Source: a virus
IMG/VR virus record: IMGVR_UViG_3300008448_000009
Location: 32,001-96,000 of that record
Length of the DNA: 64,000 bases
Strand: one strand, 5' to 3'
A model generated the notes under the pieces. It was given only the letters and a program-made list of their open reading frames with translations, had not been told where the DNA came from and did not search any database. Below, piece by piece: positions 21,784 to 34,123 of this stretch (positions are counted from its first letter, which is position 1; every line of letters starts with the position of its first letter). Made by a program: the position numbers and the translations under genes.

Positions 21784-23211
21784 ATGTCATTAGTTGATAA
21801 AAAGAAAAAAGTTTTTGGTGAAATAGCTGCTGCTAGAACATTGACAGAAGGAATGCCTAAGTTCAAACTTGATTCATCTTTTCCGTCGATTAATAACGGT
21901 TCTGACCCGATTGTTTTTTTGGTCGATTTGATTAAATCATTAATCGGTCAGTCAAATTTTGTTAATAAAATTTCAAAAATGTTGGCTACAACACTTGACA
22001 CTATTGAACAAAAATTAAAAATAGTCCTTAAAAAAACTTTAAAGGGTATAGTTACTTGCGGTGTTGACCCAAGCATACCAGCATTTATGAGGTCTGGTCC
22101 AAACACTACTGGTATTGTTATAGAAGTTAGTAAAATAGATTTCTTTGAACAATTTAAAACAGACCCAACAACACCTATAGGTAAACTAATGTATAACGAC
22201 GTAACATCATCATTGGTTACTAGTAGTGATATGAATACGTTTTTATATGCTGTTATTCAAGACGAAGGTACTACACGCACATGGCAGAATATTTTGGATT
22301 TTACATTTTATTCTATAGGGACAAATGGAAACCCAAACAATTGTTTTGTCATCAAATGTAACCAAACATATGACAATAAAAAACTTAACCAATTAAATGA
22401 TAATTTTATCGATTCTTTGGATTTATTTGAATCTAGTAATATAATAAACAAAATCATCGATGCTTTATTTGGTTCAATTTCTTTTAATTTGAATAAAACC
22501 AATAAACAACTTGAGATGGAAGCTCAAATTAATGACGTTATTGATAGGTTATCAAACGCTGACATTAATAAAGAAATAACTGATGATTATTTCGAGTTTT
22601 CAAATGAAGAGATTGCTCAACAACAATACTTAGCAAACGATAGGAAAAATGGTATTATTAGAGTTAAAACTAGTGTAGAAACAAAAGCCAATATGCCAAT
22701 TAGTTATTTAGAAACATTGACCAATGATTTAAACGCACCTAGTGTTACGTTAGTACAAAAGAGGGATATTATAAATACTAGTTTAAATAGCATGGCCGAT
22801 AACTTAAGTAGTCAAATACCCAACAATCAAGACGGCCAAACTGTTAAAATTAGCTTTTTTAAAGATTTAATAAAAAATTTAATCAAAACAATTACTAGTG
22901 TTTTATTATCACCGAAAATTATAATTATTTTTCTAATTAATTTTAAAATAATTTTCGGAGTTGCATCAACATTTAAAGACCCTATTGACTTTATAAAGAA
23001 AAATAGAGCACTATTTACCGCTGTAACTAAAGAAATTACAAACATTATTGTTCAATACCTTATGGCTATTGCTATGCGAGAAATAAGTAAATTAGCTGGT
23101 AACGCTGCTGTTATTAAATTAAAAGAAAAGGTTGACAATAAAAAACAACAATTGATAAGTCTATTAGGTGTTCCTCAAGACGCTATTAGAAAAATTAAAG
23201 GATTAATATAA
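21784..23211 (+). CDS. hypothetical, probably virion/baseplate-associated
   Basis: 475 aa ORF in operon with the gp5-like gene. Confidence 0.5.
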   Translation: MSLVDKKKKVFGEIAAARTLTEGMPKFKLDSSFPSINNGSDPIVFLVDLIKSLIGQSNFVNKISKMLATTLDTIEQKLKIVLKKTLKGIVTCGVDPSIPAFMRSGPNTTGIVIEVSKIDFFEQFKTDPTTPIGKLMYNDVTSSLVTSSDMNTFLYAVIQDEGTTRTWQNILDFTFYSIGTNGNPNNCFVIKCNQTYDNKKLNQLNDNFIDSLDLFESSNIINKIIDALFGSISFNLNKTNKQLEMEAQINDVIDRLSNADINKEITDDYFEFSNEEIAQQQYLANDRKNGIIRVKTSVETKANMPISYLETLTNDLNAPSVTLVQKRDIINTSLNSMADNLSSQIPNNQDGQTVKISFFKDLIKNLIKTITSVLLSPKIIIIFLINFKIIFGVASTFKDPIDFIKKNRALFTAVTKEITNIIVQYLMAIAMREISKLAGNAAVIKLKEKVDNKKQQLISLLGVPQDAIRKIKGLI

Positions 23212-23705
23212 TGAGTGGAATAAACAACTTATCGGGACAAGGTAGCAATGCGCTAAACCAAGGTAAAGAAAAATTTTCAGAACTTAAAAAAAATGCCGAA
23301 AATATATTTGATTTTTCAAATATATCTGGAATTTTAAATATAATTTTATCTTTGTTTAAAATTCCAGATACACCTGTAGAACCATTACCACCACCACTTA
23401 TTATGGTAGGTGCACCACTAAGACCAGGAATGTCAGCCAAAGCTGTGGCTTCTAGAATTATAGCTAGACAATCTGAAGCTGGTTTACCAGTTGGTGATGT
23501 TTTTGCTGATGGAAATAACACTAGCGAAGCTATGTTAGCTATACAGGTTGATGAGGTTATAAATACTTTGTTAACAGAATCTGTGGTCAACGTTGTTATA
23601 CCTCCTGGAGTTGCAATAACAGCGGTGGGCGCTAATCTAGGTGGACCTATTGTAGTGCAAGGGTTTACAACAACCATGGGTGTCGGTAATGGAATAATGA
23701 GATAA
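23211..23705 (+). CDS. hypothetical, probably structural
   Basis: 164 aa, TAATG overlap with upstream gene. Confidence 0.55.
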   Translation: MSGINNLSGQGSNALNQGKEKFSELKKNAENIFDFSNISGILNIILSLFKIPDTPVEPLPPPLIMVGAPLRPGMSAKAVASRIIARQSEAGLPVGDVFADGNNTSEAMLAIQVDEVINTLLTESVVNVVIPPGVAITAVGANLGGPIVVQGFTTTMGVGNGIMR

Positions 23706-23718
23706 TTAAAATAATGTT

Positions 23719-23901
23719 ATGTACGAAGATTTAGAATCAAAATCAAACAATGAAATTTTGTTTGAAATAAAACAAATGGAGGCCGACCACGAGGCTATAA
23801 AACTTAAAATGTTGCAAGACTATGATAAACTAGTTGAAATCGAAAAAAGATTTGACGTAGCTAACAAACTAATTGTAAAAAGACTTAAAGGGGAACAATA
23901 A
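23719..23901 (+). CDS. small coiled-coil protein
   Basis: 60 aa, stop overlaps next start. Confidence 0.55.
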   Translation: MYEDLESKSNNEILFEIKQMEADHEAIKLKMLQDYDKLVEIEKRFDVANKLIVKRLKGEQ

Positions 23902-24923
23902 TGCTAAATAACAAACATACCAGAGGTGAAAAAAGCCAGTACGATACCTACAAAACATTTACTTATTTAAAATATGGTGAAGTAATGTCTGTTAACGACC
24001 CAAGTAGTTTGGGGCGTATAAAAGTATGGATTAAAGGTTCTGTAAGTAATGGTGGTGATGACGAAATAGTAAATAGTGGTACCGATTATGATAAATTACC
24101 ATGGTGCCATCCTTTACTACCTAAACATTTATCAGTTCAACCAAAAGTTGGTGAAGGTGTTTGGGTTTTTGTTTTTAGTAAAGAAAAGGAAAGTGGGGAT
24201 AGAATGTTTATCGGACCTATCATTTCACAATTAAATAAATTAGATTTTGATAGTGCTAAAACAACTGCATTATCTGGTTTTAATTTCGGACCAACAAAAC
24301 CAAGTATAAATATTACAAACAAAGGTGGTGCTATTGCAATACCAGAGTTAATTGGTGTTTTCCCTAACCCTGAAGATGTATCAATTCAAGGTAGATACAA
24401 TACTGATATCACACAAAAAAAGAATGAAATAGTTCTTAGAGCTGGTAAGTTTGTTGAAGCACCAATATTTAACCCTAGTGAAAACCCATACCCTTTTGTT
24501 TTCAATACCGCAACACAAGGATTTATTCAAATTAAAAATAATGCCGTATTAGAAACAACTAACGTAGACCAAACACTAGTTAATAATAAAATTGGCACCA
24601 TTACCAATATAGTTTCAAACAAAATAAACCTTATCACACATGGTGGTTCACCAAGTTTTGAAGTTACTAACCAACAAAACCTGATTAGTGACGAAGAAAT
24701 GTTAAGAATTCTTTCTCAAGCTCACCAACTACCTTTTGGTGATATATTACTACAATATTTAAAACTGTTAAAAGATGCTTTCCTAAATCACGTACACAAC
24801 GGACATGGTAATAAATGTACTGATTTAACTATTGAAGGAAATAAACAAGCCGTAAAAGCTTTCCTAGATAAAGCCAAAGAATTGGAAGATTCTATGTTAT
24901 CTAAAAACATTCGTATTAATTAA
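23901..24923 (+). CDS. baseplate hub/spike protein (gp5/VgrG OB-fold-like N-terminus)
   Basis: GEVMSVNDPSSLGRIKV...LPWCHPL...PKVGEGVWV; C-terminal H.HNGHG metal-tip-like motif. Confidence 0.7.
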   Translation: MLNNKHTRGEKSQYDTYKTFTYLKYGEVMSVNDPSSLGRIKVWIKGSVSNGGDDEIVNSGTDYDKLPWCHPLLPKHLSVQPKVGEGVWVFVFSKEKESGDRMFIGPIISQLNKLDFDSAKTTALSGFNFGPTKPSINITNKGGAIAIPELIGVFPNPEDVSIQGRYNTDITQKKNEIVLRAGKFVEAPIFNPSENPYPFVFNTATQGFIQIKNNAVLETTNVDQTLVNNKIGTITNIVSNKINLITHGGSPSFEVTNQQNLISDEEMLRILSQAHQLPFGDILLQYLKLLKDAFLNHVHNGHGNKCTDLTIEGNKQAVKAFLDKAKELEDSMLSKNIRIN

Positions 24924-24965
24924 GCTTATTACTGTTTTTATGATATTTATAATAAAAACAAAACC

Positions 24966-26372
24966 ATGGTAATACGTACATATTTCGATAAAAACAACAC
25001 AATAGTTAGTAACTCAATTGTTAACACTGGATTAAACCCAGTGGCTGAGTTATTTTACGGTGGTGCTGATGGTGCAGAAAAATATAGTAGGTTTTTATTT
25101 TACTTTGATGAAACTAGACTTAGAAATTTATACACTGGGGGCACGTATACCGACTTAACTAAACTAAAACATACTCTTAGACTAACCAACACAGCATCGT
25201 TCGATACAGGCCTTTTAAACGGTACAATGGAAGCCAAAGACAGAGCTTCATCATTTGATTTGATTTTATTCAAAATTAATCAAGATTGGGATAACGGTGT
25301 AGGTTATGATTATGAAGTTCCTATAATTGTTAGTGGTGATTATTTCTATTCTAGTGACCCATCAAATTGGACAGCAGCCAAAACTGGTGAAGCATGGACC
25401 AACGGTACTGGTGTTTATTCTGGTTCACCATCAGGAATTACTGTAACAACACAACACTTTGATAAAGGTAATGAAAACATAGAAATGGATATTACAGACT
25501 ACGTTAATGGGTTGTTAACTGGTGACACAAACTATGGATTAGGAATTGCGTATGCTAGAGGTTATGAACAAATAAACACATCAGCTCTACAATATGTTGG
25601 ATTCTTTACTAACAACACACAAACATTTTATGAACCATTTGTTGAAACAATCTACGATAACCATATTAAAGACGATAGAAACAACTTTTTCTTAGATAAA
25701 CATAACAAACTATATCTTTACGTAAATCTTGCGGGAAATCCAACTAATTTGGATTCTATACCTAGTGTTGACATTTATGATGAAAACGGTGTTATATTTT
25801 CATCATATACATCTTCTGAGGTTACACACGTTACTTTGGGTGTTTATTCTATTGATATCATCGTACCAACAACTAATTCAAACGAAAATACAATGTATAA
25901 CGATGTTTGGAGTGATGTTGTGATAAACGGTGTTACCAGACCAAATATTAGTTTAGATTTTGTAATGAGACCATCGATGGAATATTACAATATTGGAAAC
26001 AACGATATGCTACCTAAAAAAATTGCTGTATCGATTGGTGGTATCAGAAACCAAGAAAAAATAAAACGTGGTGATATCCGTAAAGGTATCGTATCAGCTA
26101 GAATTCCTTACACCGTAGAACAAACTCAAAGTATTGATAACCTTCAATATAGATTATATGTTAAAGAAGGTGTGAGAGAATTAACAGTGATTGATTTCCA
26201 ACCAGTTGAAATGGCAAACAATTATTATTATTTCTTGTTAGATACAGCTAGTCTTATCCCGAATACTTACTATTTGGATATTCTTGCAACATCAAATTTA
26301 GAAGTAACAACAATAAAAAGTGTTGTTCAATTTGACATTGTAAACCAAGTTGAATTACGTAAAGGACAGTAA
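24966..26372 (+). CDS. beta-rich putative virion structural protein
   Basis: 468 aa, WDNGVG/MDITDYVN pattern; late motif at 24943-24950. Confidence 0.55.
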   Translation: MVIRTYFDKNNTIVSNSIVNTGLNPVAELFYGGADGAEKYSRFLFYFDETRLRNLYTGGTYTDLTKLKHTLRLTNTASFDTGLLNGTMEAKDRASSFDLILFKINQDWDNGVGYDYEVPIIVSGDYFYSSDPSNWTAAKTGEAWTNGTGVYSGSPSGITVTTQHFDKGNENIEMDITDYVNGLLTGDTNYGLGIAYARGYEQINTSALQYVGFFTNNTQTFYEPFVETIYDNHIKDDRNNFFLDKHNKLYLYVNLAGNPTNLDSIPSVDIYDENGVIFSSYTSSEVTHVTLGVYSIDIIVPTTNSNENTMYNDVWSDVVINGVTRPNISLDFVMRPSMEYYNIGNNDMLPKKIAVSIGGIRNQEKIKRGDIRKGIVSARIPYTVEQTQSIDNLQYRLYVKEGVRELTVIDFQPVEMANNYYYFLLDTASLIPNTYYLDILATSNLEVTTIKSVVQFDIVNQVELRKGQ

Positions 26373-26373
26373 T

Positions 26374-26712
26374 ATGAAAAGTTTTATAAAACAAAGACTC
26401 AGAGAACAAATGATTGATGGTCAAAACATGAATGGCAGCATGCAAAATAGTTGTAATACAATGACTATTAATAGTTATGATGAAGCTTTAAGTAGAGTAG
26501 AAGCATCGCTTAAAGGTGTTAGTCCAGAAACAAGACAACAAGTTATGCAAAAAATTCACGTTCCGTTGGAAAATCTTAAACAAGAAGAACAAAAATTAAA
26601 CCGTGAAGAAAAATCACAACACATGACTGGTGATTCAATGCCAGACCAAGTAGACACCTATTGGCACCAAATTCAATCAACGTTGTGTGAATTAGGCCCA
26701 GATTTTGAATAA
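26374..26712 (+). CDS. hypothetical protein with IKxxLRE leader
   Basis: MKSFIKQRLRE; ATG 26374. Confidence 0.6.
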   Translation: MKSFIKQRLREQMIDGQNMNGSMQNSCNTMTINSYDEALSRVEASLKGVSPETRQQVMQKIHVPLENLKQEEQKLNREEKSQHMTGDSMPDQVDTYWHQIQSTLCELGPDFE

Positions 26713-26713
26713 T

Positions 26714-27235
26714 ATGAAACAAGTAATCAAACAATTATTAAGAGAAAATTTAATAAAATGTGTCAATCTTTATCCAACAAAAGAAGTTATAAACTATGTT
26801 AATAATTTTGATTCAGACGAACAACTATTACGTAGTGGTGGTTTACCAGATGATATCTTAGATAGATACGCTTTTGGTTTCACTGAGTCTGATATGACCG
26901 AATTAGACCCATCAAGAATCTCAATAAAATGGCATAGTGATTTAGAGAATGTTATTTGGGAGGTTAAAGAAAGTGGTCTTTCACCTATAGAATGGTCAAA
27001 AAAAATTAACTTAACAGAACCTATTGATGTTTCTTATGAGTCAAATGGTTTCGGGTTAAAATTTTATTTAGAAGATGGGCATCATAGATATTATGCTGCC
27101 AAAACATTAAAAAAACCATTAAATGTTAATTTAAGAATCAAAGCAAATCCAATAAATAAAATAACTAAAAACAAATTAGGATATGATGATTTTCATAGAT
27201 GTTTATTTAATCAAGTAAAAACTATTGACAATTAA
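26714..27235 (+). CDS. ParB/Srx-like domain protein with IKxxLRE leader
   Basis: PIDV...YLEDGHHRYYA; MKQVIKQLLRE. Confidence 0.65.
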   Translation: MKQVIKQLLRENLIKCVNLYPTKEVINYVNNFDSDEQLLRSGGLPDDILDRYAFGFTESDMTELDPSRISIKWHSDLENVIWEVKESGLSPIEWSKKINLTEPIDVSYESNGFGLKFYLEDGHHRYYAAKTLKKPLNVNLRIKANPINKITKNKLGYDDFHRCLFNQVKTIDN

Positions 27236-27259
27236 AATAGTTTTTAGTATATTTATGAT

Positions 27260-27333
27260 TATACGTTAACTCACGTATTGGTTTCGAGTCAGAAATGGCT
27301 TTAGAGTTGTCTAGGCAACAAAGAAATTGGTAC
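27260..27333 (+). ncRNA. candidate structured 5' leader RNA (three-way junction)
   Basis: P1 27275-85/27323-33; P2 27286-91/27296-301 with GAAA loop; P3 27306-10/27315-19; G-U pairs only work on the + strand. Confidence 0.55.
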
Positions 27334-27365
27334 AATAATAACAATAAATTAAAAGTTAATTAAAC

Positions 27366-28346
27366 ATGAAAAACTTAAATTATGTGGCACCAAAAATGCC
27401 AACAGCTAATTTGGCTGTAAACAAAAGTAGAGTTAAACTCTACAACAAACAAGGCGATTTGCCAACTTATTACTTACAAAAAGGGCAAGAGTTCCAGATT
27501 GAACTTTTCAATCCAACTACGGACACTGTACTTGCTAAAATTACACTTAACGGAAATGTTATCTCACAAGGTGGTCTTGTTTTAAACCCTGGCCAAAGAG
27601 TATTTCTTGATAGATACTTAGACGTAGCTAAAAAATTCTTATTTGATACTTACGAAGTAGCTAACACACAAGAAGTGAAAGAAGCCATAGTAAACAACGG
27701 TGACTTCAAAGTAGAATTCTATAGAGAATCAAAACCAAGACCAAGAAATCCAATAATTACTCTTGGTGGTTTTGGTAAAAGAAGCGTTTTTGGTGGGCCA
27801 AATTATGACCAAGGGATTATTCGTTACGATAGTACAAACACTGGTGGTTATGTTTACAATTCAGGCACTGCACCTAACACACCGTTGTGTAATACATTCA
27901 CAACGTCTACTAACGCTGTTGGTGGTTCATATTCAACAACTGGTTTGTTAACTGGTGATATTTCAAACACACTTTCAACTAGCGCGTTCTATAGCTCAAA
28001 CGTAAATTATAGCGACACCTTAAACGGTGAAGTTACAATGGATTGGATGTCGACTGAAAAAAGTGTTGAAACACCTAAAAATCTAACTAGAAGTTTAAAA
28101 GCTAAAAAATCTAAATCAATTGAAACTGGTAGAGTTGAACAAGGTTCACATTCTGACCAAAAATTCAAAACTGTTGATAAAGATTTTGAATGGTTTGCTT
28201 TCCATACTGTTGAAGCCAAGTTGCTTCCAGTATCTCAAAAAGTTAACACAGCTGAAGATATTAATGTAAAAAGATATTGTACAAACTGTGGTGCCAAACT
28301 AGGTAAAGGACACAAGTTTTGCGCTACATGCGGCACAAAAGCATAA
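27366..28346 (+). CDS. protein with beta-rich N-domain, S/T/G linker and C-terminal zinc ribbon
   Basis: C-terminal CTNCG...FCATCG. Confidence 0.75.
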   Translation: MKNLNYVAPKMPTANLAVNKSRVKLYNKQGDLPTYYLQKGQEFQIELFNPTTDTVLAKITLNGNVISQGGLVLNPGQRVFLDRYLDVAKKFLFDTYEVANTQEVKEAIVNNGDFKVEFYRESKPRPRNPIITLGGFGKRSVFGGPNYDQGIIRYDSTNTGGYVYNSGTAPNTPLCNTFTTSTNAVGGSYSTTGLLTGDISNTLSTSAFYSSNVNYSDTLNGEVTMDWMSTEKSVETPKNLTRSLKAKKSKSIETGRVEQGSHSDQKFKTVDKDFEWFAFHTVEAKLLPVSQKVNTAEDINVKRYCTNCGAKLGKGHKFCATCGTKA

Positions 28347-28373
28347 TAAATAATTAATCGAGTTAACGTATAT

Positions 28374-28400
28374 AAAAAAAGGGCCATATGGCCCTTTTTT
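28374..28400. terminator. bidirectional terminator
   Basis: A7-GGGCC-ATAT-GGCCC-T6 between convergent genes. Confidence 0.88.
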
Positions 28401-29043
28401 ATTGTATTGTTAAATCCATTTTATTTAACTTGAACATATCGTTCAAATCTTTTAATGTGGTTGGTGTAATTAATCCGTTTATATTAGAACCAATCCAACA
28501 TTGTGTAGTACCGTTGATAAATAATACCTTAAAAAATGCTGATGGAATTGGAATTCTAGATTTACCCATATACTTTTTATTCTTAGGGTCATATATGACA
28601 CCAGTGATAATAACAACATCTTGTTTTGACTCAGCAATTATATCTTCAACATCACCTTCCATTTGGGCCCATTTACCTCTATTGAAACCAGCCAATTGTG
28701 GCGCTGCGTTGAACAAGCTAAAAGATTTATGGTTCAAATTATTATCATAAGATGTGATATGTGACGGTGTCAAATGACCAATATCATAACCAGTTTTTAA
28801 ATACGCGTCTTTATAGTATTTACCTTTGTACGTATCTTGAAACCAACGGTTGTCTCGCTCTTTATCTAGCTTTAGAAAGCTTGAATATTTTAAAACATGT
28901 TTGGATACCAAAGCGCAAGTATCTTTAGTTAAATACAACGTAATGTCTCCGTGGTTTATGATTAGTTTGTTGTCTGTTTTTACGGTCTGTGAAAACATGG
29001 TCATTGTCATGAACAATGTTATAAGTAAAAATATTTTCTTCAT
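28399..29043 (-). CDS. secreted DNA/RNA non-specific endonuclease (NucA/EndA, His-Me finger)
   Basis: YDIGHLTP, NAAPQLAGFNRGKWAQME, IPSAFFKV; signal peptide MKKIFLLITLFMTMTMFS-Q from ATG 29043. Confidence 0.85.
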   Translation of the reverse strand: MKKIFLLITLFMTMTMFSQTVKTDNKLIINHGDITLYLTKDTCALVSKHVLKYSSFLKLDKERDNRWFQDTYKGKYYKDAYLKTGYDIGHLTPSHITSYDNNLNHKSFSLFNAAPQLAGFNRGKWAQMEGDVEDIIAESKQDVVIITGVIYDPKNKKYMGKSRIPIPSAFFKVLFINGTTQCWIGSNINGLITPTTLKDLNDMFKLNKMDLTIQ

Positions 29044-29065
29044 ATCTATAAATATCCTATAAAAC

Positions 29066-29096
29066 AAAAAAGGCCACCGTAATGGTAGCCTTTTTT
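29066..29096 (-). terminator. terminator after the major capsid gene
   Basis: AAAAAAGGCCACC-GTAAT-GGTAGCCTTTTTT. Confidence 0.8.
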
Positions 29097-29114
29097 ATGT
29101 TATATAAGATAAGA

Positions 29115-30989
29115 TTATCTTAATTCGTTGATGTTAAATGTTTGAACACCGTCAACTCTTAAGTGACCATAGAAACGGTTGTTTACGACTTTTTTCGCGT
29201 AACGAGTCATAATACCTTTCACTGGAGCGAAGTTGAATGGGTTATACATTGTAGGTGTCAATTGTAATGGCACGTATGGAGCATAGATGTATCCAGTGTC
29301 TAACAATGATTTACCTTTGTGACCAATGATGATAGAGTAAGATGGTGCATAAGGGTCACGGTACACTTGGTAACGTCCACTTAAAGAACCGATTCTTTCA
29401 ATACCCATGTTGTATTGGTCTTGCTCTGGGTTAGCGTCACTTACGTGGAAGTATTCTAAGTCATCAAAGATAGCTGAGATTTCTGAAGATACTACGATAA
29501 AGTTAGCACCACCTCTAAGAGTTGATTTATGGATTTGAGCAGAGATTTGGTTTAATTTAGTAATTAAAGTTTGGTTCCACTCTTTTTGTGTGTATGGTGC
29601 AGCAGCATTACCTGTAGCTTTTCTCCATCCGTTGTAGTCCCAACGTAATTGCCATGCAGCAGCTTTACGTAAGTCTCTAAGGATTTCACGGTCGATTTCA
29701 GCAGCAACTTGCTCAGAAAGCATTGCAGTTAATTCAGCTTCAGCGTCGATGTTGTGGAATGCACTAACGTCTTGCGCTAATTCTGGAGACCATGTAGCTC
29801 TTAATTTTCTTTCTTCAACTGATACTACAACTTCATCTAATCTGAAAGATACTTCTCCCATTTCAGTTTCAAGTTCTAATGTAGCGTATTCAGCCCAAGT
29901 TACTACTAAACCAGCAGTAGTTGTGATAGCAGATACAGTAGTAGCAGAAGCACCTACATAACCATCGTATGTTGCAGTACCTACAGCAGCAGCACCTGTA
30001 CCAGCAGTTGAACCAGCTGGGTGAGTCAAGTCTAACTCAATGTACATAACACCGTTTGGTGTAGTTAAGATTGGGTAACCACTAGCGTTTACGTTTTTAG
30101 TTTGAACAATACCAGTTCCATATTTTTGAGTTACAATACGGAAAGGAACTTCACCACCAGCAGCAACAACTTGGTTACCATCACGGTCTAAAATAGCGTT
30201 AGTAGAAACAACTTTCAACGAAGCCAAGAATGACTCAGTATCCATGTTGTTACCATCAGGACCAGTTAATACTTCTCTACCAGCAGCAGAACCAGCACCA
30301 CCTGTGAAACCTGAAATAGATAAAATAGCGTTTCTCACAGAACCATCAGCAGCAGTTGGGAATGAGGTACTTGGAGGTGGAACACTAAATACACCATTAG
30401 AGTTTAATGTTTGAGCGTTAGCGTTAGTAATGTTGTAAGTTACGATAGTAAGAGTACCTTTTGATTGGTCGAATAAACCATCGTTGTAGAAAATATCATA
30501 CAAGTTTTTAGCCATCCAAGGAGTTACTGTACATGTAGCATCAGCACCTTTAACACATGATGGAATACCATCATACCCCATTGAAGTGTGAGCTGAGAAA
30601 GTAGGTCCATCACCGTTATAGTAATCACCACCAACACCAGCAGCGTTTACACGCTCTGAAGTCAAAGGCACAAAGAAGAACAATTTACCGATTGGCATGT
30701 TCATAGCTTGTACTGATACAACGTCATTAGCTAATAATTTTGAGAAAACTCTACGTACAATTGGGAATACTACAGTTTCAAAAGAACCTGAGCTACCAGC
30801 AGTAGTTGATTCAGTCAATAATGAAGACGCTTGGTTTTCATATAATTGAGCGATGTTTTCTTTAACGTGGCCTCTAAGACCATCTAGGAATCCTAATGAA
30901 TCCCATTTTTGTTGAGTCTCTAAACGGATAGCCTTCATGTGGTTTAATCCGATGTTACCAACTTGTCCAGATGTTAATAAATGTGACAT
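29115..30989 (-). CDS. major capsid protein, T4 gp23-like, with large insertion
   Basis: FPIVRRVF..L.A...VSVQAM, RKLRATWSPELAQDV.AFH.IDAEAEL, EIDREIL, GYIYAPYVPL, GIMTRY. Confidence 0.95.
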   Translation of the reverse strand: MSHLLTSGQVGNIGLNHMKAIRLETQQKWDSLGFLDGLRGHVKENIAQLYENQASSLLTESTTAGSSGSFETVVFPIVRRVFSKLLANDVVSVQAMNMPIGKLFFFVPLTSERVNAAGVGGDYYNGDGPTFSAHTSMGYDGIPSCVKGADATCTVTPWMAKNLYDIFYNDGLFDQSKGTLTIVTYNITNANAQTLNSNGVFSVPPPSTSFPTAADGSVRNAILSISGFTGGAGSAAGREVLTGPDGNNMDTESFLASLKVVSTNAILDRDGNQVVAAGGEVPFRIVTQKYGTGIVQTKNVNASGYPILTTPNGVMYIELDLTHPAGSTAGTGAAAVGTATYDGYVGASATTVSAITTTAGLVVTWAEYATLELETEMGEVSFRLDEVVVSVEERKLRATWSPELAQDVSAFHNIDAEAELTAMLSEQVAAEIDREILRDLRKAAAWQLRWDYNGWRKATGNAAAPYTQKEWNQTLITKLNQISAQIHKSTLRGGANFIVVSSEISAIFDDLEYFHVSDANPEQDQYNMGIERIGSLSGRYQVYRDPYAPSYSIIIGHKGKSLLDTGYIYAPYVPLQLTPTMYNPFNFAPVKGIMTRYAKKVVNNRFYGHLRVDGVQTFNINELR

Positions 30990-31022
30990 AATTTGTTTTT
31001 TTATTTTTTTATTGGGTTATTG

Positions 31023-32366
31023 TTATCTTTTTTCAACTCTGTGAATTAAATCCATAATTCTTTTAGTTGAAGGGTCAACATACGCAGTGCTTTCGTTTAA
31101 TTGTTTTGAAGTACTAGTAGTTGCCTCTTTTATAATTTTGTTTTCTACTGATTCTGAAATTGGTTTTCTTGATTCCAATTCATTAGCAATAGTTTTGTAA
31201 AGTCTTTTTGACTCTTTAAGGTTTGTTACCTCTTCATCAAATCTTTTGATTATAGTTTGTTTCTCACCTTTTGTTGTAGAATGTTCCATGAACAATCTTG
31301 TTACATAAGTCAAATTGCTGTTGAACACTACAGTCTCTACTAACTTAGTTCTAAATTCTTTAAGAGCTACTCTGAATTCTTCATTTTCACCTTTAAGTTT
31401 AGTTGCTTCAGTTAATAAACTGTTATATTTTTTAGCGGTTTCAGAAACTATCTGTTTTGCTTTGTTTACTGTTTCATCGATTTTTTCACCGTCTACAGAT
31501 TTTTTACCGTATCCTAAGTGAGAAGCACCGTGTCTTCTTTGACCTTGATGACCAGCACGACCATTAACGTTACCGATGGTTTCATCCAATTCTTCCTCTT
31601 CTTCGTCCAATTCTTCCACTTCGTTCAAATCTTCCTCTTCGTCCAATTCTTCCTCTTCGTTTAAATTTTCTTCTTCATCAGATTCCTCTTCAGATTCTTC
31701 ACCTTCTTCGTCTTCTTCTTCACCTTCTTCGTCATCACCTTCTTCGTCATCTAATTCGATTTCGTAGTCCATGTCTTCACCTTCTTCGTCTTCTTCTTCA
31801 CCACCCATTTCAGCTGGTTCTAAATCTAACTCTTCATCGTCACCCATTTCTGGTTCTGAAGATGGAGCTTGACCGTCAAGTTTAACAACATATTCTCCTG
31901 GTTCTGTAATGTTTAAGTGAAGTTCATCACCTACAATTTCAATTTCGTCTTCGCCACTTAATTTTTTGTAAATTGCGATTACTTCATCGTCTGGTGCTCC
32001 AACCATATCGATTTCATCTGATGCGTCTATATCATCCATTCCTATGCCACCCATTTCGTCGCCCATGTCGTCGCCCATGTCAGTATCAGGTTCTAAACCA
32101 CCTTCTACATCACCCATGTCGTCACCCATTTCGCCACCAAGGTCTTGGCCATCGATATCATCTCCACCTAATGTTTCAACGTCGTCACCCATTTCGGTGT
32201 CAACATCTTCTTCTTCGTAAACCTCCTCTAGAGATTCTTTCACAACACCATTAATTTCTTCTTTCGCAACCGAACGAAGTATTTCTTTGGTATTGGCATT
32301 AAGAGCATTCTGAATATTGTTAATATCCAAAAGTGCTTCTTCAAGTATAGATTTTTTATCTGCCAT
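31023..32366 (-). CDS. prohead core/scaffolding protein
   Basis: Very acidic centre and coiled-coil C-terminus; lies between protease and capsid genes. Confidence 0.8.
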   Translation of the reverse strand: MADKKSILEEALLDINNIQNALNANTKEILRSVAKEEINGVVKESLEEVYEEEDVDTEMGDDVETLGGDDIDGQDLGGEMGDDMGDVEGGLEPDTDMGDDMGDEMGGIGMDDIDASDEIDMVGAPDDEVIAIYKKLSGEDEIEIVGDELHLNITEPGEYVVKLDGQAPSSEPEMGDDEELDLEPAEMGGEEEDEEGEDMDYEIELDDEEGDDEEGEEEDEEGEESEEESDEEENLNEEEELDEEEDLNEVEELDEEEEELDETIGNVNGRAGHQGQRRHGASHLGYGKKSVDGEKIDETVNKAKQIVSETAKKYNSLLTEATKLKGENEEFRVALKEFRTKLVETVVFNSNLTYVTRLFMEHSTTKGEKQTIIKRFDEEVTNLKESKRLYKTIANELESRKPISESVENKIIKEATTSTSKQLNESTAYVDPSTKRIMDLIHRVEKR

Positions 32367-32483
32367 TTTATCTTTTTTTATATGTTTTTTATTAGATAAA
32401 CAATGAGATGTTTCTCATTTGTTAATAAATATGCGTGTTTTTATCAAAAATCACTTTTTTGATAAAAAAATTATTATTTTTAA

Positions 32484-33209
32484 TTAGTCATTCAAAAAAT
32501 TATCCAACTTATCATTCAATGATTCAGTCATAAGTGGTTTCTTAATCTCGGTATTTTCCACATATGGGCGCGCTTCTTCATGATTTTTAAAAATCCAAGC
32601 GTCTGGTGTGGAAGGTGCTGTAACAACATCCCAACAAATAATTTCGAAATCGTCTTGTACAATTTGTTCTCCATTTTTACCCTCTTTCAACGAACCAACA
32701 CCTCTAGAAGACACACCAATTTTTATTCTGTTTCTTAATAGATTAGCTACTTCATCACCTTTGGTAGATACGATACCCAAATTAATAAACCCAGGTGTCA
32801 TCAATATCTCCATCTTACCCATAAGTGTTTTACCTTCCCACCATGTTTCTACAATGTTGTGAGAAATTCTATCACCAGCAATAATAGAAGACTCAGGGTG
32901 GTCTAATTCACCCACAGCTCTACGCTCACGTATGGCTTCTTGATATATTTGATTTTGTTTTTTTAAAATTGATTCTGGATAAATTCTACCATTACGATTA
33001 AGTACATCATATTTTTGTAGTACCACATATACAATTAGCGGCTCAACTATTGCTAGTTTGCTGCCTGTGTCTAATTTTTTTATTTCGTTTATGAATGCTT
33101 GGTTTCTTGGTTCATCAGGGTTGATGTACCCAGCGTCTTGTTCGATTAGACCACCCCAACCAGTTTCTCCACGTTTTAATACTTTGAAGTCTTTATAATT
33201 TATATCCAT
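32484..33209 (-). CDS. prohead protease, T4 gp21-like
   Basis: NRNGRIYP, GELDHP, GVSSRGVGS and DVVTAPSTPDA motifs. Confidence 0.93.
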   Translation of the reverse strand: MDINYKDFKVLKRGETGWGGLIEQDAGYINPDEPRNQAFINEIKKLDTGSKLAIVEPLIVYVVLQKYDVLNRNGRIYPESILKKQNQIYQEAIRERRAVGELDHPESSIIAGDRISHNIVETWWEGKTLMGKMEILMTPGFINLGIVSTKGDEVANLLRNRIKIGVSSRGVGSLKEGKNGEQIVQDDFEIICWDVVTAPSTPDAWIFKNHEEARPYVENTEIKKPLMTESLNDKLDNFLND

Positions 33210-33247
33210 AATTTGCTACCTTATAGATATAAATATATTACAATAAC

Positions 33248-33277
33248 AAAAAAACCCCAGTATTACTACTGGGGCTT
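33248..33277 (-). terminator. intrinsic terminator
   Basis: A-tract then CCCCAGTA-TTAC-TACTGGGG hairpin. Confidence 0.8.
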
Positions 33278-33279
33278 AA

Positions 33280-33726
33280 TTATATTTTCTTTTTATGATA
33301 TTTAAAATTTTCATCTAACTCAAAAACTTTATTAATTAACATCGATGTAACATCATTTAGTGAAGTTTTTGTTTTGTCAGATATGATTGAAATTTCTTCA
33401 GTTTGAAACAATGTTATTTCACAACTCATAAAACTACGTTTTCCGTATTTTATACCAGATTCTCTGATATCCAAATCAACAATCGTGTTGTTTTTTAAAA
33501 AACCAGAATTTTCGTTTAAATTAAAATAATTAAACAAATCTTGTTTTAATTTTTTATTTATGTCTTTAATTACTCTAGTGTAATTAACATCCTCATCTTG
33601 ATTTAGTGGTTCGGCCCACGCTGAAATGTTTATATAAACCGATTTTGGGTTTTTATTATCAACACAACCATAGACTATATTGTAGTTATTATGGTTGTCA
33701 TTTTTAAATTGTTTTCCTGTCTTCAT
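33280..33726 (-). CDS. hypothetical protein
   Basis: 148 aa; own host-type promoter. Confidence 0.6.
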   Translation of the reverse strand: MKTGKQFKNDNHNNYNIVYGCVDNKNPKSVYINISAWAEPLNQDEDVNYTRVIKDINKKLKQDLFNYFNLNENSGFLKNNTIVDLDIRESGIKYGKRSFMSCEITLFQTEEISIISDKTKTSLNDVTSMLINKVFELDENFKYHKKKI

Positions 33727-33745
33727 ATTCTAGTAAATTAATATA

Positions 33746-33776
33746 CAAATATAATAAAATTCCAGGAATTAGTCAA
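33746..33776 (-). promoter_or_regulatory. Bacteroidota-type -33/-7 promoter
   Basis: Minus-strand TTG (33776-74), 20 nt, TATATTTG (33753-46). Confidence 0.7.
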
Positions 33777-33781
33777 CAACC

Positions 33782-34123
33782 TTAATGACCTAATTTACCC
33801 CAAATTGAAATAATAATTCCAACAACAATTTGTACGAAAGACATAATAGCTATAGCGGCTACCCAACGATTTTTTTGACGATACAATTCATCTTTGGCTT
33901 CCTTCATTTGACTAGGTGACCAAACGTCGTTTACCTTGGCTATCCACGATGTGTTAGCTTCAACATTTCTTTCAATATTTTTTACGTCGTTTAACTTAAG
34001 ATTCATTTCGTTAAGTTTTTTATCAATATCGGTACGCATTTTTTCTTGATTTTCAGCCAAACGTTCTAATTCTTTTAGAACTAGTTTGCTATAGTCTGCC
34101 CATGTATCTTTACTTTCAGCCAT
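33782..34123 (-). CDS. coiled-coil protein with C-terminal TM helix (possibly holin-like)
   Basis: WVAAIAIMSFVQIVVGIIISIW. Confidence 0.5.
   Translation of the reverse strand: MAESKDTWADYSKLVLKELERLAENQEKMRTDIDKKLNEMNLKLNDVKNIERNVEANTSWIAKVNDVWSPSQMKEAKDELYRQKNRWVAAIAIMSFVQIVVGIIISIWGKLGH

Follow-up and report, generated by a model that had tools for sequence, protein, structure and literature searches.

The 64,000-nt stretch of phage DNA analysed here (the window; positions 32,001 to 96,000 of IMG/VR record IMGVR_UViG_3300008448_000009) contains at 27225-28400 a one-gene transcription unit whose two ends are perfectly complementary, and the question it raises is whether these ends pair in the predicted mRNA and close it into a loop, or whether the repeat is an accident of sequence or the border of a DNA element. 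The original prediction had described complementary 5′ and 3′ ends around a single CDS together with a three-way-junction RNA leader, and this observation is confirmed, although the window alone would not have shown it and the support comes from related phages that keep both features through matching mutations. The unit consists of the following parts, in which P0 denotes the helix between the two ends.

27225-27255 (+), promoter, with the -35 element TTGACA at 27225-30 and the extended -10 element TATATTTA at 27248-55; the predicted +1 is about 27260
27260-27272 (+), P0 5′ arm, the first 13 nt of the predicted mRNA, pairing with 28360-28372
27261-27278 (+), optional local hairpin (ATACGT/ACGTAT) that competes with P0 and with the first bases of P1
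27275-27333 (+), three-way-junction leader RNA, with P1 at 27275-85/27323-33, P2 at 27286-91/27296-01, P3 at 27306-10/27315-19, and junction strands UAGA (27302-05) and AAA (27320-22)
27334-27365 (+), unstructured A/U-rich tract leading to the start codon, without a Shine-Dalgarno sequence
27366-28346 (+), CDS of 326 aa with a C-terminal zinc ribbon at residues 304-325
28360-28372 (+), P0 3′ arm, beginning 13 nt after the stop codon and ending 2 nt before the terminator stem as scanned
28375-28400 (+), intrinsic terminator of 11 pairs with an A-tract and a T-tract, probably working in both directions since the convergent endonuclease gene ends at 28399

Every element of the original prediction was found where it had been placed. 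The promoter, TTGACA-17-TATATT at 27225-27253, scores 11 of 12 and is the best match in 22000-34000, and both of its boxes are conserved in homologous loci. The 5′ arm TATACGTTAACTC has its perfect reverse complement at 28360-28372 and no other copy in the 119-kb record, even when one mismatch is allowed. The 106-nt leader, whose description as unusually long for this genome rests on the original prediction alone, folds as had been drawn, with z = -2.03 on the + strand and z = -0.14 on the complement. The tract before the start codon is unpaired in the consensus fold and carries the conserved motif AAAAGTTAA. One detail did not hold: the GAAA loop of P2 is not conserved, and its length and sequence vary between loci. 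The proposed local ATACG/CGTAT hairpin exists at -3.9 kcal/mol and forms in most loci, but its pairing is 75.1% against 73.0% in shuffles and the changes are mostly one-sided.

On this sequence alone, the repeat is not remarkable. The genome holds 34 independent perfect 13-nt inverted pairs 200-2000 nt apart, and composition-matched simulations give 13.4 ± 4.0. The significance of the repeat in a single sequence was therefore rejected as evidence. We also scanned every terminator-proximal 10-mer of the genome against upstream sequence for a second unit of this kind. This returned one other 13-nt pair, at 85219/84059 in window-scale coordinates on the minus strand and outside the window, which spans an ORF, a second promoter-like site and a tRNA-like stretch and is taken as chance. 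No other unit with this architecture was found.

Comparison with homologous loci, which had been named in advance as the test, settles the matter. A search of viral contigs found 82 relatives, of which 80 were kept, and after removal of duplicates 61 loci had both flanks (set 1). Of these 61, 53 have an ungapped helix scoring 9 or more between the predicted mRNA start and the 3′ UTR. Cognate arms score 11.27 on average, whereas swapped partners score 7.92 ± 0.24, and 0 of 10000 permutations reach the observed value. Ten core columns are 88-100% paired, with up to four Watson-Crick pair types per column. Parsimony on the protein tree requires at least 43 Watson-Crick-to-Watson-Crick changes over 12 columns, although column homology is uncertain for divergent arms, the tree is a quick one, and recombination would inflate the count. 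The helix was found again in a second collection, in 40 of 47 new non-redundant metagenome loci, with further arm variants; across both collections it is 9-20 bp long. Eight of the 61 set-1 loci lack a helix scoring 9 or more. In six of them (our loci L025, L026, L037, L034, L076 and L060), the 3′ end of the gene has been replaced and there is no helix, yet the 5′ arm and the junction are retained. P0 is therefore dispensable, or the 5′ arm has a second role.

The pairing looks like RNA on the + strand. Sums of sense and antisense helix scores were uninformative (687.5 against 692.0), because helix ends extend by wobble on either strand, and internal mismatches were counted instead. Internal G.U outnumber A.C 11 to 2 among 67-71 distinct helices (p = 0.022, also under symmetric scoring), but the count is small and two of the 11 are probably one inherited event. 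This bias bears on the possibility that the arms are oppositely oriented copies of one DNA operator, one at +1 and one at the end of the gene, through which a DNA-binding protein, possibly the zinc-ribbon product, would loop or clamp the unit. The arms are indeed the same double-stranded sequence in opposite orientation, in the main clade they contain the palindrome GTTAAC, and the product carries a zinc ribbon. However, only complementarity is conserved and not sequence, with more than a dozen arm variants among proteins that are 40-90% identical. Helix length and ends vary, non-palindromic arms occur (loci L045, L067, L081 and L160), transition mismatches are biased towards G.U, and in the megaphage locus L171 the zinc ribbon is swapped for a SHOCT-type end while a complementary 8-bp pair is kept. 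We consider this reading very unlikely.

The geometry fits a helix between mRNA ends. P0 starts 5-6 nt after the -10 hexamer in most loci and ends 0-9 nt before the terminator, and the full-length fold gives pair probabilities of 0.84-1.00 for P0 and about 0.9 for P1. The 5′ arm is nevertheless placed inside the RNA only by promoter geometry and the G.U bias, as the transcription start is inferred and not mapped. Logan contigs of RNA libraries from four studies cover 27282-28359 but not 26943-27266 or 28401-28481, a weak hint of expression. Contigs from two studies both begin at 27282, but such contigs cannot show transcript ends, since unitigs break at strain variants, and the uncovered flanks are no evidence either. 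Short metagenome contigs, including those of loci L102, L103 and L109, were considered as possible transcript-length assemblies, but their ends do not coincide with the predicted +1 or the terminator.

An invertible or mobile cassette bounded by the inverted repeats, also offered in the original prediction, is not supported and appears a remote possibility. In its favour, the repeats flank exactly one gene and the neighbouring genes differ between loci. Against it, 0 of the 53 helix-bearing set-1 loci show the flipped arrangement, with the promoter box always directly upstream of the 5′ arm and leader, and the promoter and terminator lie outside the repeats yet always travel with the unit. Pfam scans of the five genes within about 2.5 kb found ParB-like, CBM96-like, endonuclease and Gp23 matches, and no recombinase or transposase. 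No joints appeared in the contigs examined, which came from RNA libraries only. The arms also drift in sequence while staying complementary, unlike recombinase sites or the conserved terminal inverted repeats expected of a MITE/IS-type element.

The three-way junction is likewise conserved. In the alignment, 94.0% of cells are paired against 79.6% in shuffles, 18 of 22 pairs have compensatory changes, 0 of 500 shuffles match, and slid controls give 33-46% pairing. The second set repeats this. Three G.U pairs are invariant or nearly so (57/57, 56/57 and 57/57 distinct rows). A model of the junction (R1) scores 82.6 bits in the window and hits 67 of 80 metagenome loci and, upstream of the gene, 6 of 6 loci in megaphages, including Lak phages. 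There is one strong hit per complete genome in 4 of 4 genomes, and one in the window's own record. In the megaphages, P0 is clear in only 1 of 6 loci (L169), suggestive in one (L171), and indistinguishable from shuffles in the two Lak phages and two others. A search against Rfam 15 gave 0 matches in the 64-kb window at gathering score, and with E up to 10 the only hit in 27200-27420 is a chance A/U-rich rRNA match at E = 3. Literature searches found no phage mRNA with paired ends, although terms such as 5′ UTR match poorly in the search engine used and absence from print is not proven. Both results are consistent with the original description of the module as undescribed.

With moderate confidence, we interpret the locus as a self-contained one-gene transcription unit of a roughly 330-kb freshwater phage, probably with a Bacteroidota host. 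In this view, the first 10-16 nt of the mRNA pair with a stretch of the 3′ UTR that lies 4-19 nt after the stop codon and 0-9 nt before the terminator hairpin, so that the finished message is closed into a loop of about 1.1 kb. The junction sits 2-6 nt from P0 and is followed by the A/U-rich tract, on which ribosomes would load. What the comparisons establish is that P0 and the junction are conserved RNA structures with many compensatory changes, and that the junction is specific to this gene and older than P0. The functions, in contrast, are inferred, including any effect on stability, translation or protein binding. P0 would bury the 5′-triphosphate end in a helix that can only form once the 3′ end has been made, which would shield full-length mRNA from 5′-end-dependent decay and hold its two ends in one compact domain with the terminator hairpin. 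The junction, with its conserved G.U pairs and invariant core, is most likely a protein-binding operator that sets translation of this gene, and the binding protein could be the gene's own product or a host or phage factor. The interpretation given in the original prediction is thus only partly supported: end pairing strongly, by covariation and the G.U bias, and RNA-level selection on the junction as well, whereas autoregulation by the zinc-ribbon protein remains conjectural.

An alternative, which we regard as unlikely, is a translation switch that senses completion of the message. In the nascent RNA, the 5′ arm would pair with a short segment about 10-20 nt upstream of the start codon, or fold into the local hairpin, and dampen ribosome loading until the longer P0 helix displaces that pairing and licenses translation. 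The minimum free energy (MFE) fold of the leader alone pairs GUUAACU with AGUUAAU just before the AUG. Cognate helices between the 5′ arm and the pre-AUG tract score slightly above swapped ones (6.28 against 6.00; 6 of 5000 permutations reach the observed value). A clade with altered arms (L045, L056 and L080) carries a matching insertion before the AUG, and the loci that lost the 3′ arm still keep the 5′ arm. However, the effect is tiny, the helices are 5-8 bp and A/U-rich, the permutation test ignores relatedness, the most distant clade (L081) has no such pairing in the GTTAA sense, and the local hairpin is not supported beyond shuffles. A pairing of the pre-AUG tract with the spacer between the stop codon and the 3′ arm, seen in the full-length MFE fold of the window's own sequence, is not conserved either (4.64 against 4.55; 760 of 5000 permutations match). 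A bolder version of this idea, speculative and improbable on present evidence, is a natural closed-loop prokaryotic mRNA whose 5′ end, held in weak local or pre-AUG pairings during synthesis, is captured by the 3′ arm only when the terminator-proximal sequence emerges. This would switch the message into a nuclease-resistant, translation-competent form in which both termini, the terminator hairpin and the junction make up one ribonucleoprotein domain. The junction would be a new protein-binding or ligand-binding RNA class shared by Bacteroidota-infecting jumbo phages and megaphages, including Lak phages.

P0 could also be a processing stem, trimmed at both ends of the message by an RNase III-type enzyme as with rRNA precursors or T7 early mRNAs, but we consider this doubtful. 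P0 abuts P1 with a gap of 2-6 nt, both helices are conserved, and duplexes between the 5′ and 3′ UTR are RNase III substrates in icaR (PMC7821165). RNase III requires roughly two helical turns, for which P0 alone, commonly 10-15 bp, is short, and about 22-27 bp is reached only if P0 stacks on P1 across the gap as a bulge. Arm sequence moreover drifts freely, with no conserved internal-loop signature.

The complementary segments lie between promoter and CDS and between CDS and terminator, as in mRNAs with 5′-UTR/3′-UTR base pairing, and are supported by covariation beyond one sequence. In the hbs mRNA of B. subtilis, a helix of about 14 bp forms between the 5′ and 3′ UTR of one short monocistronic mRNA and limits endonuclease access to the leader (Braun, Durand and Condon 2017, PMC5737220). 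That interaction is reported not to be conserved among close relatives (PMC7821165), whereas the helix described here starts at the predicted +1, abuts the terminator and is kept by covariation; there is no sequence homology. Long-range pairing between the UTRs of one transcript is also found in S. aureus icaR and RNAIII (PMC7821165; PMC3868564). In icaR, the 3′ UTR masks the ribosome-binding site and creates an RNase III site, which is repressive, while here the 5′ partner is the very 5′ end, about 90 nt upstream of the AUG. The 5′-terminal stabiliser hairpins of the ompA type, in which a base-paired 5′ terminus with few or no unpaired leading nucleotides blocks 5′-end-dependent decay, are local, but here the partner strand lies 1.1 kb away and protection would exist only on complete transcripts. 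Complements of 10-20 nt kept by covariation also enclose the functional body of flavivirus genomes (cyclisation sequences), of orthomyxovirus and bunyavirus genomes (panhandles) and of rRNA precursors, where they serve replication or rRNA maturation, whereas this is a predicted mRNA of a dsDNA phage with a sigma-70-like promoter. The layout of a structured leader element followed by an unstructured A/U-rich tract resembles the T4 gene 32 translational operator, used for autogenous repression, but T4 uses a pseudoknot and a known ssDNA-binding protein.

Pairing between the 5′ and 3′ UTR is known in only a handful of bacterial mRNAs, and a review notes that functional 3′ UTRs, including that of hbs, are not conserved among close relatives (PMC7821165), so that their generality is debated. 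Here the same architecture is kept by compensatory evolution across hundreds of phage loci from many environments, which is the clearest comparative evidence we could find that selection can act on end-to-end closure of a bacterial-type mRNA, and which provides natural variants for testing what closure does. The junction is a new gene-specific structured RNA that reaches from 330-370 kb freshwater phages to the 540-640 kb Lak and related megaphages, for which almost no cis-regulatory RNA is known. As the probable Bacteroidota hosts largely do without Shine-Dalgarno pairing, the leader may show how phages control translation in such hosts.

The function of the encoded protein could not be predicted. 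Pfam finds only the zinc ribbon, PHROGs gave nothing useful, a Foldseek search of the PDB returned no match with E <= 0.001, and the Atlas gives only hypothetical viral clusters, all with scores under 0.9. Of 1730 relatives, the 120 inspected are unnamed or "hypothetical" apart from one automatic label. Besides the zinc ribbon, the protein has a beta-sandwich (residues 12-125 plus 250-290) and a disordered linker (residues 128-247).

The window comprises bases 32001-96000 of a 119-kb viral record estimated to be 36% complete, has a G+C content of 33%, and carries a T4-type major capsid gene just downstream of the unit under study. The following features were located:

27225-27253, sigma-70-like promoter TTGACA-17-TATATT, the best match in the 12 kb scanned
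27260-27272, 13-nt 5′ arm
27366-28346, 326-aa ORF ending in a zinc ribbon
28360-28372, 3′ arm, the perfect reverse complement of the 5′ arm
28375-28400, terminator

Neither arm has another copy in the record. The 106-nt leader folds into the three-way junction drawn in the original prediction, with z = -2.03 for the + strand and z = -0.14 for its complement. The predicted elements are thus present at the predicted positions, and the observation holds. A gene for a DNA/RNA non-specific endonuclease (28399-29067, minus strand; Pfam E = 4e-29) converges on the same terminator.

On this sequence alone, the complementarity of the arms is not more than chance would give. Perfect 13-nt inverted pairs 0.2-2 kb apart occur 34 times in the record, where 13.4 +/- 4.0 are expected from composition. 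Most of the excess is accounted for by a motif, AAATAAACTTAT, which recurs many times on both strands of the same record (G000) beyond the window (window-scale about 72000-87000), often just upstream of gene starts, and which may be a phage-specific promoter. A second perfect 13-nt inverted pair (window-scale 84059-85219, minus strand, outside the window) links a site just before a start codon to a site before a terminator. As the interval also holds a second promoter-like site and a tRNA-like stretch, we judge this pair to be chance.

The case rests on relatives. A search of viral contigs found 82 relatives, of which 80 were kept, many of them from 300-370 kb genomes. After loci without both flanks and duplicates were dropped, 62 units remained, and one of these (locus L065), in which the gene sits inside an operon with no leader and no 3′ arm, was excluded, leaving 61 for alignment. 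Using the stretch between the -10 box and P1 (the basal stem of the junction) and the first 45 nt after the stop codon, we found an ungapped helix scoring 9 or more (the end helix, P0) in 53 of the 61 loci. The arms differ between lineages yet stay complementary, as exemplified by TGTGTTAACTC with GAGTTAACACA in locus L014, ATCGTGATTGA with TCAATCACGAT in L056, GTTATGGTTAAC with GTTAACCATAAC in L049, and AGACCTTGTGGTTGA with TTAATCACAAGGTCT in L081. Of the eight loci below the threshold, two have weak helices (L022, and L035 with 7 bp), while six (L025, L026, L037, L034, L076, and L060) have had the 3′ end of the gene and its UTR replaced. These six lineages have lost the 3′ arm but keep the 5′ arm and the junction, which counts against our reading of P0. 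Natural variants of the unit include a frameshifted CDS (L074), a replaced C-terminus (L060/L061), and replaced gene ends with new terminators that lack the 3′ arm (L025, L026, L037, L034, and L076), and they amount to ready-made "knock-outs" of P0.

Swapping partners between loci lowered the mean helix score from 11.27 to 7.92 +/- 0.24, and 0 of 10000 permutations reached the observed value. Ten core columns are 88-100% paired, with two to four Watson-Crick types each (L081 was left out because its 5′ segment is misaligned). On a quick maximum-likelihood tree of the proteins, the fewest changes between Watson-Crick states sum to 43 over 12 columns, although column homology, tree error, and recombination make this a rough figure. 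The result was replicated in a second collection of 80 metagenome loci, 47 of which were new, non-redundant, and had a leader hit and both flanks. Of these, 40 have the helix, with further arm variants.

Three observations favour RNA on the + strand over DNA. First, internal transition mismatches are G.U in 11 cases and A.C in 2 among 67-71 distinct helices (binomial p = 0.022, unchanged when both kinds are scored alike), although the count is small and two of the 11 (L008 and L087) are probably one event. Second, complementarity is conserved rather than sequence, and helix length and ends vary from 9 to 20 bp. Third, the helix begins 5-6 nt after the -10 hexamer in most loci, which is at the predicted +1, and ends 0-9 nt before the terminator stem; several -10 box positions offset by 3 nt were corrected by eye in this comparison, and both transcript ends are predicted rather than mapped. 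Folding of the predicted full-length RNA (27260-28400) gave P0 pair probabilities of 0.84-1.00. RNA-library contigs from four studies cover the gene, but they cannot show transcript ends or strand, and DNA carry-over cannot be excluded. A pair of DNA operators is disfavoured by the G.U bias and by the sequence drift of the arms. All 53 helix-bearing loci have the promoter box next to the 5′ arm and leader, and no assembly shows the flipped state that an invertible segment would give. An invertible or mobile cassette is therefore disfavoured by orientation, as well as by the lack of a recombinase among the five neighbouring proteins scanned and by the promoter and terminator lying outside the repeats. 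The interpretation offered in the original prediction is thus supported only in part, in that an end-paired mRNA with a structured leader is favoured whereas the cassette reading is not.

In a MAFFT alignment of the 61 leaders, 94.0% of cells pair in the three-way junction, against 79.6% in shuffles and 33-46% when the partners are slid. Changes on both sides are seen in 18 of 22 pairs, and 0 of 500 shuffles reached any of four measures. The same structure was found independently by RNAalifold. Three G.U pairs are invariant or nearly so (57/57, 56/57, and 57/57 distinct rows), and the junction strands (UAGA and AAA in the window) are nearly invariant. A covariance model of the junction (R1) gave one significant hit in the window's own record (E = 6e-19) and one strong hit in each of four complete 362-369 kb genomes. 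It also hit 67 of the 80 metagenome loci, always upstream of the gene on its strand, where the pair statistics were repeated, albeit on an alignment fitted to the model. Rfam 15 has no match.

The protein has 1730 relatives at E <= 1e-5, and the 120 examined are all unnamed or "hypothetical", apart from one automatic label. A tblastn search against GenBank phages found the protein family in Prevotella Lak megaphages and in 460-735 kb uncultured phages. In all six such loci retrieved (L166-L171), the best hit of R1 lies just upstream of the gene, with E from 8e-12 to 4e-3 and filters off. In these loci, P0 is clear in one (L169, duplex -18.6 kcal/mol, matched by 17 of 500 shuffles), suggestive in one (L171, an 8-bp G+C-rich pair in the right places), and not distinguishable from shuffles in the two Lak loci and two others; that it is not evident in Lak phages counts against our reading. 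The junction is therefore the older and wider element, while P0 characterises the freshwater 300-370 kb group and some megaphages.

What the analysis demonstrates is the existence of two conserved RNA structures, their geometry, and their gene specificity, whereas their probable role is inferred. A 5′ end buried in a helix whose other strand is made last would protect only complete messages from 5′-end-dependent decay, and would also hold both termini beside the terminator hairpin. This would work like the hbs 5′/3′-UTR pairing (Braun et al., 2017; PMC5737220). The 5′-terminal stabiliser hairpins of mRNAs offer a further parallel. The junction lies about 30 nt upstream of an unstructured, A/U-rich tract free of Shine-Dalgarno sequence and looks like a protein-binding operator, by analogy with the layout of T4 gene 32. 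A completion-sensing translation switch has weak support and some results against it, and an RNase III-type processing stem is a further hypothetical alternative. The host is probably Bacteroidota, since Lak phages are recorded with Prevotella hosts and since TAnnTTTG-type elements followed by a start codon lie right after the terminators in related loci (L014, L024, L032, L043, L069, and others), which points to Bacteroidota-type promoters, for which TAnnTTTG is the consensus.

Pairing between 5′ and 3′ UTRs and cis-regulatory leaders are both known. What is new here is a helix that starts at the predicted +1 and abuts the terminator, its deep covariation, and an undescribed junction motif shared with megaphages. 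No description was found in literature searches, although these handle "UTR" terms poorly and did not extend to supplements.

The AlphaFold model of the protein (mean pLDDT 64.6) comprises a confident beta-sandwich built from residues 12-125 and 250-290, a 120-residue disordered linker rich in Ser/Thr/Asn/Gly, and the zinc ribbon. It has no significant PDB match. The predicted beta-sandwich matches predicted structures of uncharacterised proteins of giant viruses (Nucleocytoviricota), nudiviruses, nimaviruses, and iridoviruses at 10-17% identity, with Foldseek E from 1e-10 to 1e-4, but the long disordered linker may inflate these scores. In L171, the C-terminal zinc ribbon is replaced by a SHOCT-like end, and the best BFVD match is also labelled SHOCT. 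In a distant relative (locus L163), a tRNA-like sequence, read by eye, lies directly upstream of the unit's promoter.
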